Source: Escherichia coli (lineage in GTDB: Bacteria > Pseudomonadota > Gammaproteobacteria > Enterobacterales > Enterobacteriaceae). From it: a stretch of DNA of 64,000 nucleotides. Location of the stretch: the NCBI RefSeq assembly GCF_965641715.1, contig NZ_OZ282454.1, one strand, 5' to 3'. Position 1 is the stretch's first letter. Every line of letters starts with the position of its first letter. Below are positions 45,526 through 51,500 of the stretch, in pieces. Made by a program: the position numbers.

Positions 45526-48500
45526 TCACCCCGCCGGGCTTACCACGAGTTTCCCATGACATTTCCAGCGCTTTCATGGTGAGCCTGCTGTCCGGCGAGA
45601 ACGACATGGCCCAGCCCACTGGTTTTCTTGCGAACAGGTCGGGAATAACGGCGAGGTACGCCCGGCGCTTACCCGCCCAGATACAGGTCACATCACCGCA
45701 CCACACCTGATTTGGCTCGGTCACGGCGAACTGCCGTTCAGGGTAGTTAGGGATAGCAACATGTTCGTGGCCACCATGTTTATACCGGTGAGTTGGCTGC
45801 TGACCGCTGACCTGTCACAGCTCTTTCATAACAGCCGTTCTATCTGTCAGGAGGAAGCGGTTGCTGCCCAGGGGGGGAATCTTGCATGGCATCTTGTTGA
45901 TTGTTACGTGATGGTTTGAAAAACTTTGCAATCATGTTGGCGCGCGAATTGCGTCAGATTAAAAAAAAGGATAACGTCAGACCTCATCTTTTCAGAAAAA
46001 GATATCTTTTAGTCGCCACGACACAAGAAAAAAAACTATTATTATTAAGAATGTGTTTTGATTGTTACTATGGGTAAATAGTATTATCCAGAAAATTACC
46101 AACATATATTAAACATTTTTTTAAGATTTTATTATATTATTTTCTGGTTATCTTGGATATTACATTATATAGGAGGGATTATGACTTTTTTATCACCACC
46201 AGAGGTACCAACAATAAAAGCAGATAATGGCACCTATTATGATTTTAACAATGGTGCAAGGATATTATTCCCGAAAGGAGAATGGCACGTCAACATTATT
46301 GATGAGGATTCAGGAAATATATTGTTTTCTTGTGACACCCAGGCTGGCTGGGTGACAAGCACAAAAAAATACTATGTCAAATTCAGAATACAGGTATTTA
46401 AAAAGGGAGAAGAAAAGCCGTTCCTCGACACAGTAATGGAACTGAAGGATAAACCCGTTCTGATATCATTTCCGACCGGTACACTGGGCGACATTATTGC
46501 CTGGTTTCATTATGCTGAGAAATTCCGTATAAAACATCAATGTAAACTGGAATGCTCAGTCAGTGAGGAGTTCATAACGCTACTCTCAGATAATTATCCG
46601 GACATAAAATTTACGTCGGCACAGGATAAATATGAAGGTAAGCCTTATGCAACGTACAGAATTGGTCTATTTTTTAATGGCGATACGGATAACCAGCCTG
46701 TGGATTTTCGTCTGGTTGGTTTTCATCGCAATGCCGGCTATATCCTTGGAGTATCTCCTCAGGAAGAACCCCCCCGACTCAATCTTTCCGCTGAAAGGAA
46801 AATCCAGGAGCCTTATGTCTGTATTGCCGTGCAGTCTACCGCACAGGCAAAACACTGGAATAATGGTCTAGGGTGGGCTGAAGTGGTCAGATACTTAAAG
46901 GAACTTGGGTATCGGGTTTTGTGTATTGACCGGAATGCTCATGCCGGTAATGGTTTTGTCTGGAATCATATTCCATGGGGAGCTGAAGACTTTACCGGCG
47001 CACTTCCCTTGCAGGAAAGGGTAGATTTATTACGACATGCCAGTTTTTTTGTCGGTTTAGCCAGTGGATTGTCATGGCTGGCATGGGCCTGCCGCATCCC
47101 TGTGGTTCTCATTAGTGGTTTTAGCCGGCCAGACAGTGAGTTTTATACACCCTGGAGAGTTTTTAATTCACATGGCTGTAATGGATGCTGGGATAATACA
47201 AATTACAACTTCGATCATACTGACTTTCTCTGGTGCCCTGTGCACAAAGGTACGGACAGACAGTTTGAATGTACCCGGCTTATTACAGGGAAACAGGTGT
47301 GTGGTGTGATTAGAACGCTTCATTCATATTTAACCAATCATGACAGGATAATTTAATGAATAAGGCCTACAGTATCATATGGAGCCACTCCAGACAGGCT
47401 TGGGTTGTGGCCTCAGAGTTAGCCAGAGGGCATGGTTTTGTCCTTGCAAAAAATACACTGCTGGTATTGGCGGTTGTTTCCACAATCGAAAATGCATTTG
47501 CAGTAAATATTTCAGGCACAGTATCTACAGGAGGAACTGTTTCTTCCGGCGAAACACAAATCGTGTATTCCGGTGGGGAAACCAGTAATGCCACTGTAAA
47601 TAGTGGAGGAACACAAATCGTCAATAATGGTGGGAAAACCACTGCTACAACAGTTAATAGTTCAGGAACCCAGAACGTCGGGACTTCAGGAGAAACAATA
47701 AGCACAATTGTCAATTCTGGTGGCATTCAGCGTGTCAGTTCAGGTGGTGTGGCCTCTGCAACAAATTTAAGTGGCGGGGCTCAGAACATCTATAATCTTG
47801 GCCATGCATCAAATACCGTTATTTTTAGCGGTGGAAATCAGACGATTTTTTCAGGAGGTATCACTGATAGTACAAATATCAGCTCCGGTGGCCAACAGCG
47901 TGTCAGTAGTGGTGGCGTTGCCTCGAACACCACTATTAATAGTTCTGGCGCACAAAATATCCTTTCCGGAGGAAGTGCCATAAGCACACATATCAGCAGT
48001 GGTGGTAACCAGTATATCTCTGCTGGCGCTAATGCCACTGAAACCATTGTCAGTTTCGGCGGTTTCCAGCGCGTTAATTCTGGGGCGGTTGCAACAGGTA
48101 CAGTCCTTTCTGGTGGGACCCAGAATGTTTCATCCGGAGGGAGTGCCATTAGCACTTCTGTTTATAATTCTGGTGTACAGACTGTTTATGCCGGAGCCAC
48201 TGTTACTGACACAACCGTGAATTCCGGCGGAAATCAAAATATATCTTCCGGTGGAATTGTGTCAGAGACCACAGTGAATGTTTCTGGTACTCAGAATATA
48301 TACTCCGGAGGAAGTGCCCTTAGTGCAAACATTAAGGGCTCGCAGATTGTGAATTCTGAGGGTAAAGCTATTAACACTCTGGTTAGTGATGGAGGCTCTC
48401 AACATATCAGAAACGGTGGCATCGCGTCCGGTACTATTGTAAATCAGAGTGGTTATGTAAATATTTCATCAGGGGGCTATGCTGAGAGCACCATTATTAA

Positions 48501-51500
48501 CAGTGGAGGAACACAGAGAGTTCTCTCTGATGGTTATGCCAGGGAAACAATACTTAACAACAGTGGCAGAGAAAATGTTTCAAATGGTGGTGTATCCTAT
48601 AATGCCATGATAAATGCCGGCGGAAACCAGTATATATACAGCAATGGTGAAGCCACTGCTGCCATTGTTAATACCAGTGGTTTCCAGCGGATCAATTCTG
48701 GCGGAGCGGCCTCCGGTACAAAACTCAGTGGTGGTAACCAGAATGTCTCTTCTGGTGGCAAAGCCATTGCTGCTGAAGTGTACTCTGGCGGTAAACAAAC
48801 TGTCTATTCAGGTGGCGAGGCATCTGGCACTCAAATTTTTGATGGGGGTGTAATCAATGTTTCTGGGGGCACTGTCTCAGGAGCAAATGTAAACCTGAGT
48901 GGCCGGTTAAACGCTTTTGCAGGCAATGTGGTCGGCACTATCCTTAACCAGGAAGGGAGGCAGTATGTTTATTCAGGAGCCACGGCGACCAGTACTGTGG
49001 GTAATAATGAAGGCCGGGAATATGTGCTCTCCGGCGGGATTACAGACGGAACAGTACTGAACAACGGTGGGTTACAGGCGGTAAGCAGTGGGGGAAAAGC
49101 TTCAGCTACTGTTATTAATGATGGAGGATCCCAGTTTGTATATGACGGAGGACAAACAACCGGAACCAGCATCAAAAATGGAGGCACGATCCGCGTGGAT
49201 TCCGGTGCCAGCGCCCTGAATATTGCTTTAAGCAGCGGAGGCATTTTATTCACTTCGACGGGGGCGGCCGTTACCGGAACTAACCACTATGGCAGCTTCT
49301 CCGTTTCACAAAATCATGCCTCAAATGTTGTATTAGAGAACGGGGGGCTTCTGGCTGTTACATCAGGCAGCACAGCAACCGATACAACCGTAAACTCAGC
49401 CGGTCGTTTAAGAATCGATGAGGGGGGCACTCTTGACGGAACAACCACAATCAATGCTGACGGAATTGTCGCCGGGAATAAAATTCAGAACGATGGTGAT
49501 CTTATTCTCAATCTTACCGGAAACTATGATTTTGAAACAGAGTTGTCAGGTAGTGGTGCATTAGTAAAGGACAATACCGGGATTATGACCTATGCTGGTA
49601 CATTGACACAGGCACAGGGAGTGAACGTAAAGAATGGCGGGATTATTTTTGATGCTGCTGTAGTCAATGCAGATGTGTCGGTTAACCGGAGCGCCAATAT
49701 AAATATTGAAGACCAGACAACAATTAATGGTTCAGTGAATAACAATGGCAGTGTTGTCATTAATAACAGCATAGTAAACGGGAATATCACGAATGATGCT
49801 GACTTAAGCTTTGGTATGGCAAAGCTGCTCTCTGCTACGGTGAATGGCAGTCTTGTTAATAACAAAAATATCATTCTGAATCCGACAAAAGAAAGTGCAG
49901 GTAATACTCTTACCGTGTCAAATTATACCGGGACGCCGGGAAGTGTTATTTCTCTTGGTGGGGTGCTTGAAGGAGATAATTCCCTTACGGATCGTCTGGT
50001 GGTGAAAGGTAATACCTCTGGTCAAAGTGACATCGTTTATGTCAATGAAGGTGGCAGTGGTGGACAGACGATAGAGGGTATTAATATTATTTCTGTAGAG
50101 GGAAATTCTGATGCAGCATTCTCTCTGAAGAACCGCGTGGTTGCCGGAGCTTATGATTACACACTGCAGAAAGGCAACGTGAGTGGGACAGATAAGAAGG
50201 GATGGTATTTAACCAGTCATCTTCCCACATCTGATACCCGGCAATACAGACCGGAGAACGGAAGTTATGCTACCAATATGGCACTGGCTAACTCACTGTT
50301 CCTCATGGATTTGAATGAGCGTAAGCAATTCAGTGCCGTGAGTGATAATACACAGCCTGAGTCTGCATCTGTGTGGATGAAGATTACGGGCGGAAGAACC
50401 TCTGGTAAGCTTAGTGACGGGCAAAATAAAACAACAACCAATCAGTTTATCAATCAGCTCGGGGGTGATATTTATAAATTCCATGCTGAACAACTGGGTG
50501 AGTTGACCTTAGGGATTATGGGAGGATACGCGAATGCAAAAGGTAAAACGATAAATCACACGAGCAACAAAGCTGCCAGAAACACACTGGATGGTTATTC
50601 TGTAGGGGTATACGGTACGTGGTATCAGAATGGGGAAAATGCAACAGGGCTCTTTGCTGAAACCTGGATGCAATATAACTGGTTTAATGCATCAGTGAAA
50701 GGTGACGGACTGGAAGAAGAAAAATATAACCTGAATGGTTTAACCGCTTCTGCAGGTGGGGGATATAACCTGAATGTGCACACATGGACATCACCAGAAG
50801 GAATAACAGGTGAATTCTGGTTGCAGCCTCATCTGCAGGCTGTCTGGATGGGGGTTACTCCGGATACACATCAGGAGGATAACGGAACGGTGGTGCAGGG
50901 AGCAGGGAAAAATAATATTCAGACAAAAGCAGGTATTCGTGCATCCTGGAAGGTGAAAAGCACCCTGGATAAGGATACCGGGCGGGAGTTCCGTCCGTAT
51001 ATAGAGGCAAACTGGCTCCATAACACTCATGAATTTGGTGTTAAAATGAGTGGTGACAGCCAGTTGTTGTCAGGTAGCCGAAATCAGGGAGAGATAAAGA
51101 CAGGTATTGAAGGGGTGATTACTCAAAACTTGTCAGTAAATGGCGGAGTCGCATATCAGGCAGGAGGTCACGGGAGCAATGCCATCTCCGGAGCGCTGGG
51201 GATAAAATACCGCTTCTGATATGTATTAGCTCAGACCTGATCTGACAGTTACCGGTTATTTATACAGGTATCTGTCAGATTACATCTGGCTTAAATTTTT
51301 CTCAGCCCAGATGTGCTTTCCATCAAGTAACGTTTCCATTGGCGTCCGGCCACAGCACATTTTCCCCTGATGGGTTCGCTCATTATTATAGTGAGCCAGC
51401 CATTCATCAAGATCCGACTGTAATGTGTCGAGTTCGCCATACAGCTTTTTGCGGAACGCGACCTGATAAAATTCCTGCAATATCGTCCTGTGGAACCGTT

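Follow-up and report, generated by a model that had tools for sequence, protein, structure and literature searches.

We analyzed a 64,000-nucleotide stretch of Escherichia coli DNA (NCBI RefSeq assembly GCF_965641715.1, contig NZ_OZ282454.1), called the window here, and within it the repeat array of aidA, the gene encoding the autotransporter adhesin AIDA-I. The open reading frame (ORF) listing and its translation gave two adjoining plus-strand genes, aah and aidA, encoding proteins of 391 and 1287 amino acids (aa), respectively (Table 1), and the stop codon of aah overlaps the ATG of aidA at 47356. The Aah product scored 615.9 bits on the TIGR04414 equivalog (cutoff 200), and the aah gene of the plasmid record CP055625.1 carries the same annotation. 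The second product was aligned from end to end (1-1287/1287) with the NCBIfam model NF033176 at 2622 bits (cutoff 1200), in agreement with the gene name given in a preliminary description of this DNA that had been made from the sequence alone, while an identity as Ag43 was ruled out by the NCBIfam Ag43 model, which gave 271.7 bits for a cutoff of 1200. Judged from the sequence, the two genes form an operon with aidA directly 3' of aah, the arrangement by which AIDA-I is recognized. The architecture of a type Va autotransporter is complete (extended signal peptide, repeat passenger, autochaperone, and C-terminal 12-strand barrel) according to Pfam, TIGR01414, and the solved AIDA-I translocator (PDB 4MEE, 'Diffuse adherence adhesin'), which covers residues 841-1287 with E = 1e-286. 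The end of the signal peptide at the AFA motif is what we take to be the cleavage site, on the basis of published knowledge of AIDA-I. The NCBIfam model, the operon with its overlapping codons, and the domain order are all those of classical AIDA-I, from which the window allele shows no substantive difference; it is one 1287-aa allele of the classical length class.

Table 1. Features of the aah-aidA locus in the window, including the ORFs read on the strand opposite to aidA; names beginning with L denote the aidA alleles compared in the text, and TRF is Tandem Repeats Finder.
Feature	Coordinates	Strand	Evidence or remark
aah, autotransporter strand-loop-strand O-heptosyltransferase, 391 aa	46181-47356	+	TIGR04414 hepto_Aah_TibC equivalog; Pfam TibC_1st, Glyco_transf_9
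aidA, autotransporter adhesin AIDA-I, 1287 aa plus stop	47356-51219	+	NF033176 auto_AIDA-I; Pfam ESPR, 10 AIDA stretches, AC_1
Extended signal peptide, residues 1-49, ends in AFA	47356-47502	+	Pfam ESPR, residues 1-27; AFA motif, residues 47-49, from translation
Array of ~31 imperfect 17-19-aa units (51-57 bp), residues 50-626	47503-49233	+	HMM segmentation, unit table, TIGR04415, lag-57 identity
Two neighboring 57-bp units with the closest DNA match (74% identity)	47548-47661	+	Repeat-family search (family D3); sole part called by TRF
Autochaperone domain AC_1, residues 832-937	49849-50166	+	Pfam PF18883, E = 1.2e-24
Translocator (alpha-linker plus outer-membrane beta-barrel), residues 846-1287	49891-51216	+	TIGR01414, 385.6 bits
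Antisense ORF, 119 aa (P 14%, V 14%, T 13%, L 11%)	47367-47726	-	Probable non-coding by-product; 3-4 in-frame stops in L008, L007, L003, L002
Antisense ORF, 105 aa (P 19%, L 15%)	47838-48155	-	Probable non-coding by-product; 2-6 in-frame stops in divergent alleles
Antisense ORF, 72 aa, other antisense frame, not Pro/Leu-rich	48580-48798	-	22 non-synonymous, 0 synonymous antisense changes vs L006
Antisense ORF, 94 aa (P 21%, L 13%)	48969-49253	-	Probable non-coding by-product; start lost in L006 (GTA); two in-frame stops in L008; open in sister clade
Antisense ORF, 94 aa, outside array (control: periodicity unneeded)	49590-49874	-	Start lost in L004; one internal stop in L006

The units of the array follow a consensus that is roughly SGGxQxVxSGGxAxxTxVN. 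A hidden Markov model (HMM) built on the first units divided residues 45-626 into 31 units, each 17-19 aa long; unit 1 begins at 47488, where it still takes in the end of the signal peptide, and degenerate rungs run on to about residue 700. The family TIGR04415 (O_hepto_targRPT), a strand-loop-strand repeat of 38 aa (2 x 19), matched 14 stretches of AIDA-I, and the autocorrelation of the protein peaked at lags 19 and 38. At the DNA level, the top autocorrelation lags in 47500-49280 were 57 (0.458), 114 (0.416), and 171 (0.390), for a mean of 0.289 over multiple-of-3 lags; the next-best lags (339, 282, 225, and 111) are multiples of 57 minus three bases, owing to the occasional units of 17-18 aa. 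On the array itself (47503-49233), lag-57 identity was 0.460, compared with 0.288 +/- 0.011 in 1000 codon-order shuffles (z = 15.2), whose maximum was 0.349 at any lag. Between about 47383 and about 49036, sliding lag-57 identity kept to 0.41-0.52; outside these bounds it fell to background. The preliminary description had reported a 57-bp periodicity at 47500-49280 and attributed it to the passenger-domain repeats of aidA; periodicity is indeed found there, with bounds near those coordinates, and the HMM segmentation and TIGR04415 confirm its origin.

The units are much less alike than this regularity might imply. Pairs of units were on average 51% identical in DNA (maximum 70%) and 38% identical in protein in the unit table, and a repeat-family search in the array returned only families of 2-6 copies at 61-82% identity. 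TRF, run on 45000-52000, reported only 2.1 copies (47553-47669, 75% matches); it is nearly blind to the array because the repeats are too diverged, and autocorrelation and HMM segmentation were therefore used. When lag-57 identity was separated by codon position, it was 0.514 at positions 1 and 2 and 0.351 at position 3. A signal carried by codon positions 1 and 2 and not by position 3 reflects a protein-level constraint on the rungs of a beta-helix rather than a recent duplication of DNA, and the near randomness of the wobble positions argues that the units of the window have not been homogenized recently. A six-unit super-repeat was unclear at the DNA level in the window allele, in which identity was 0.528 at a lag of six units and 0.532 at a lag of one, and a weak self-match was present in the array at offset 339 (56.6% over 290 bp).

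The repeat region resembles passengers of known structure, namely those of TibA (4Q1Q, E = 7e-60, residues 61-292) and Ag43 (4KH3, E = 6e-54, residues 239-470). TibA and Ag43 are self-associating autotransporters (SAATs; PDB 4Q1Q, 4KH3, and 7KO9) that have an imperfect 19-aa repeat in common with AIDA-I, although they contain fewer repeats and differ in the C-terminal parts of their passengers; TibA has its own cognate heptosyltransferase, TibC, which is homologous to Aah. An imperfectly repeated sequence of 19 amino acids has been described in the passengers of all three autotransporters, and Aah is reported to heptosylate Ser and Thr residues of the AIDA-I passenger by recognizing a structural motif and not a sequence (PMC3835316). 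By homology to these proteins, each 19-aa unit may form one rung of a right-handed beta-helix stalk, and the Ser/Thr-rich strand-loop-strand motifs of the array would be the substrate of Aah. Heptosylation of the passenger by Aah, diffuse adherence, and autoaggregation are known for AIDA-I from the literature (PMC3835316).

The repeat number was then compared among eleven aidA alleles, leaving out L005 (CP042619), which is frameshifted and unannotated. AIDA-I has 1287 aa in the window allele and in L001 (100% identical), L004 (97.9% over the operon), and L006 (92.9%), and 1286 aa in L008 (74.9%); a 1286-aa allele in records such as DEC9B and VG12A2 is about 75% identical to the window over the aah-aidA operon. 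Seven other alleles make up a sister clade (e.g., p2RM10740, pRHB02-C19_3, and pLR-21-1_2) with the same AIDA-I annotation and operon as the window, in which AIDA-I measures 1174 aa (L003), 1192 aa (L009), 1307 aa (L007), 1399 aa (L011), and 1511 aa (L002) at about 87% identity, 1195 aa (L010) at 86.5%, and 1532 aa (L012) at 88%. The 3' 1900 bp of this clade are 92-93% identical to the window, whereas identity drops to about 75% at the 5' end of the passenger; ungapped end-anchored identities were distorted by small indels, and not by divergence, at the 3' end of L010 and the 5' end of L012.

The sister-clade arrays, segmented with the HMM, have 23-40 detectable units and contain long exact repeats (133-1558 bp) whose copies are offset by 336 or 957 bp, whereas the window has none above 16 bp. 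L012 has the longest of them, at 1558 bp; L002 reaches 279 bp, and L009 and L011 each reach 133 bp. With TRF, a 336-bp unit was called in 5.6 perfect copies in L012; in L002 and in L011 it was called in 2.2 copies at 95%. A 111-bp sub-period was also reported. The block array of L012 is located at 1986-3879 of NZ_CP043823.1 (p2RM10740, feral pig), within the annotated 1532-aa AIDA-I, and its perfect copies are due to an expansion that is very recent or else to an artefact of assembly. In L009, L011, and L002, the 5' 340-bp and 3' 1900-bp ends are 100% identical, but the lengths differ by 621 bp and by exactly 336 bp, the latter between L011 and L002, for which the aligned blocks flanking the indel are 98.8-99.8% identical. 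Exact repeats of up to 1558 bp and a change of copy number between alleles with identical ends are the marks of a tandem-repeat contingency locus, and both were found in this clade. On this comparison, repeat number in the aidA family changes in six-unit blocks (112 aa), and it does so in a clade other than that of the window. A non-exhaustive literature search found no report of repeat-number or block-wise polymorphism of aidA, only general statements on the 19-aa repeat and work on Ag43 variants.

In parallel, the antisense ORFs of aidA were analyzed. The preliminary description had listed minus-strand ORFs at 47367-47726 and 47838-48155, and both exist exactly as listed, although the first starts outside the 47500 boundary that had been assigned to the array; their translations had been called Pro/Leu-rich and of low complexity, which holds for three ORFs (47367-47726, 47838-48155, and 48969-49253) that lie in one antisense frame, but not for the ORF at 48580-48798. 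In the frame of these three ORFs, the first base of each codon pairs with sense codon position 2, and the composition is that of a mirror: all 57 antisense Pro codons are opposite Gly, all 40 Val codons are opposite Thr, and Leu is opposite Ser (25) or Asn (13). A Gly codon (GGN) is read there as Pro (CCN) and a Thr codon (ACN) as Val, whereas Ser AGY and Asn AAY both give Leu; antisense stops arise only opposite Tyr, His, or Gln after a T-ending codon (or a C-ending one, before Tyr), a combination that is sparse. Long antisense ORFs in bacterial genes are a general by-product of the codon composition of the sense strand, and those of aidA resemble them in using the wobble-sharing frame and in mirroring the sense protein; aidA differs in that the mirror of a Gly/Ser/Thr-rich repeat is a visibly periodic Pro/Leu/Val-rich translation, a difference that is only cosmetic. 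Same-strand out-of-frame ORFs of 69-79 aa were also present in the array at 47379-47588, 47771-47983, 47999-48220, and 48614-48853 (+), as further by-products of the repeat composition.

The array was shuffled in codon order, which destroys the periodicity, and among synonymous codons. The longest antisense open stretch in the array, 107 codons, was within the range of both sets, 88 +/- 24 codons for codon-order shuffles (p = 0.18) and 78 +/- 22 for synonymous shuffles (p = 0.11). In the same antisense frame, the non-periodic half of aidA stays open over 110 codons and holds an ORF of 94 aa, and antisense ORFs of 100-184 aa are found in non-repetitive genes elsewhere in the window. Per 1000 sense codons, aidA has 3.1 antisense ORFs of at least 90 aa, and other long ORFs of the window have 0-6.3. 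The composition, and not the periodicity, accounts for the antisense ORFs. The view that the 57-bp periodicity produces them was accordingly not sustained, since shuffled arrays and the non-periodic half of the gene give equal lengths, but their mirror composition and lack of conservation agree with the description of them as low-complexity by-products.

Taken together, it is very probable that the array is an old, protein-constrained array of AIDA-I with non-coding antisense ORFs, that its length is frozen in the window, and that changes of 336 bp occur in the sister clade. The periodic DNA (about 47503-49233) would encode the N-terminal passenger of a plasmid-borne AIDA-I as some 31 imperfect 19-residue units. 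The repeats would be old, with selection on the protein fold keeping the units alike while their wobble positions drifted almost to randomness, leaving the DNA weakly repetitive. The minus-strand ORFs would be by-products of the sense composition read in the wobble-sharing antisense frame. The window array would be effectively frozen in length, and the change of repeat number seen in the aidA family would belong to the sister clade, where 336-bp blocks of six units, duplicated recently, would recombine unequally with one another.

Several points weigh against this interpretation. The assignment of beta-helix rungs and the glycosylation of the units come only from homologues and the literature. 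The frame of the Pro/Leu-rich ORFs contains 17 stops, compared with 22.4 +/- 3.0 and 24.4 +/- 3.3 in shuffles (p ~0.02-0.05), a marginal depletion for which our interpretation offers no explanation, and a 10/12 sigma-70-like match (48265 to 48238, -) lies 83 nt upstream of the ORF at 47838-48155. Synonymous and non-synonymous counts cannot separate coding from non-coding sequence among close alleles because the antisense frame shares its wobble positions with the sense frame; the counts against L004 and L006 were dropped for this frame, and the conservation of stops in divergent alleles was used instead. The depletion and the promoter-like match would be expected if at least one of the Pro/Leu-rich ORFs were a real overlapping gene for a small proline-rich protein, and the presence of three ORFs of 94-119 aa in a single frame, and the stop-free state of the region homologous to 48969-49253 in the sister clade (matching open stretch of 124 codons), would also fit. 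We nevertheless regard such a gene as extremely improbable. Every divergent allele examined interrupts the first two ORFs with 2-6 in-frame stops while keeping the sense ORF intact; all three are interrupted by stops in L008, and antisense start codons have been lost in L004 and L006. No Shine-Dalgarno (SD)-like motif was detected at the antisense ORFs of the array and no Pfam match for any antisense ORF, nor did an Rfam scan of 45000-52500 at gathering thresholds return a hit. The ORF lengths and density do not exceed those of the shuffles and of other genes of the window, and the antisense composition needs no explanation beyond a mirroring of Gly, Ser, Thr, and Asn in the sense protein. The stop depletion and the promoter-like match do not outweigh this lack of ORF conservation.

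The length of the array raises the other alternative, that it is an active contingency-type locus in which unequal recombination or slippage in 57-bp steps often alters repeat number, and with it the length or antigenicity of the adhesin. The spread of annotated AIDA-I alleles in length (1174-1532 aa) and in the number of detectable units (23-40), and the perfect or near-perfect 336-bp tandem blocks of the sister clade speak in its favor, but where variation occurs it proceeds in steps of 336 bp or other multi-unit blocks and not of 57 bp. No length change was seen among 28 plasmid matches of at least 97.8% identity to the window, all of which align ungapped within 2 bp (5037-5039 bp); L004 and L006, the latter 7% divergent, keep the length of the window, and L008 differs by one codon. 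The long exact tracts of a tandem-repeat contingency locus are also lacking in the window allele, whose direct repeats reach an exact length of no more than 16 bp (at offset 729). In E. coli, RecA-dependent recombination reportedly needs about 20-30 bp of exact identity, a figure ascribed to Watt in 1985 and to Shen and Huang in 1986. A 16-bp repeat falls below this requirement and its flanks are diverged, which suggests that exchange is suppressed in the window array. In view also of the low identity between units and their near-random wobble positions, frequent 57-bp changes in the window array are very unlikely. The array had been proposed as a plausible substrate for recombinational expansion or contraction, to be assessed by comparing repeat number among aidA alleles: that number does vary in the sister clade and is constant in the clade of the window, so that the proposal applies to the former, in six-unit steps of 336 bp in place of single 57-bp units, and not to the window allele.

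The account of an old, length-frozen array in the window may be extended, tentatively and with somewhat less than even confidence, to the whole family: the aidA passenger array could be a module of variable length that works in 336-bp blocks of six rungs and not in 57-bp units. The sister clade would be gaining and losing such blocks at present, and the window allele could descend from that ancient block duplication in a diverged form whose length is frozen. Such a descent is suggested for the window by the weak lag-339 signal, which is still visible.

Other observations concern the relations among the alleles. Between L004 and the window, the difference is 0.5% within the repeat array but 4.2% over the rest of aidA, and L006 has a 5' end like that of the window clade (98%) and 3' 1900 bp like those of the sister clade (97-98%). 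These patterns point to aidA alleles being mosaics formed by inter-allele recombination, with breakpoints between passenger and translocator. The aidA homologue L005 (CP042619.1 pNCYU-26-73-4, 1676-5532), which is 91.9% identical to the window, has no annotated coding sequence, and its longest open stretch is 496 codons; it is broken by frameshifts or stops and probably is a pseudogene or contains sequencing errors. In two pig isolates, H44 and H45 (NZ_JBWDPV010000009.1 and NZ_JBWDPN010000001.1), an IS5-like ISKpn26 transposase divides the aidA match into two pieces, and the annotation 'AIDA repeat-containing protein' is given to part of the match; insertion of the insertion sequence (IS) has inactivated the adhesin gene there.

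AIDA-I was originally described in the human diffusely adherent E. coli (DAEC) strain 2787 and is common on plasmids of porcine enterotoxigenic (ETEC) and Shiga toxin-producing (STEC) strains. The 5-kb aah-aidA operon of the window is 100% identical to that of E. coli plasmids from pig faeces, such as CP055625.1 pRHB38-C13_2 (IncFIA/FIB), in which the two genes are annotated as the heptosyltransferase and AIDA-I, and a match was found in 48 of 5426 complete E. coli genomes, mostly plasmid-borne and mostly from pigs. A 1206-nt inverted repeat, 100% complementary, is present at 40195-41400 and 51222-52427 and consists of two copies of an IS481-family transposase, with ORFs at 40257-41342 (+) and 51280-52365 (-), the right copy starting 2 nt past the aidA stop. 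The copies flank a 9.8-kb segment that holds aah-aidA and a gene for an EAL-domain protein; this segment looks like a composite transposon and could mobilize the adhesin operon. Twenty-four sigma-70-like promoter matches were counted in 45400-51600, compared with 10.9 +/- 2.7 in shuffles. Several are clustered in the AT-rich stretch 46013-46138, 5' of aah, in a region where the G+C fraction falls to 0.28 (45950-46249), and this stretch is likely to be the promoter region of the operon, judging by its sequence features; further matches lie on the minus strand within aidA.

The feature of the window is already known, being the textbook repeat array of AIDA-I, and there is nothing new in it. Genes for Gly/Ser/Thr-rich beta-helix repeats routinely yield Pro/Leu/Val-rich antisense ORFs, which gene callers and human readers should ignore, and those in aidA should stay unannotated as genes. 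A periodicity found at codon positions 1 and 2 but not at position 3 is a quick sign by which an old, protein-constrained repeat can be told from a recently duplicated, recombination-prone one. The 336-bp block variation in the sister aidA alleles could affect assays that use polymerase chain reaction (PCR) or typing, as well as the assembly of aidA from short reads, and perhaps the function of the adhesin; if the array is indeed a length-variable module, changes in block number could tune stalk length, autoaggregation, or antigenicity.

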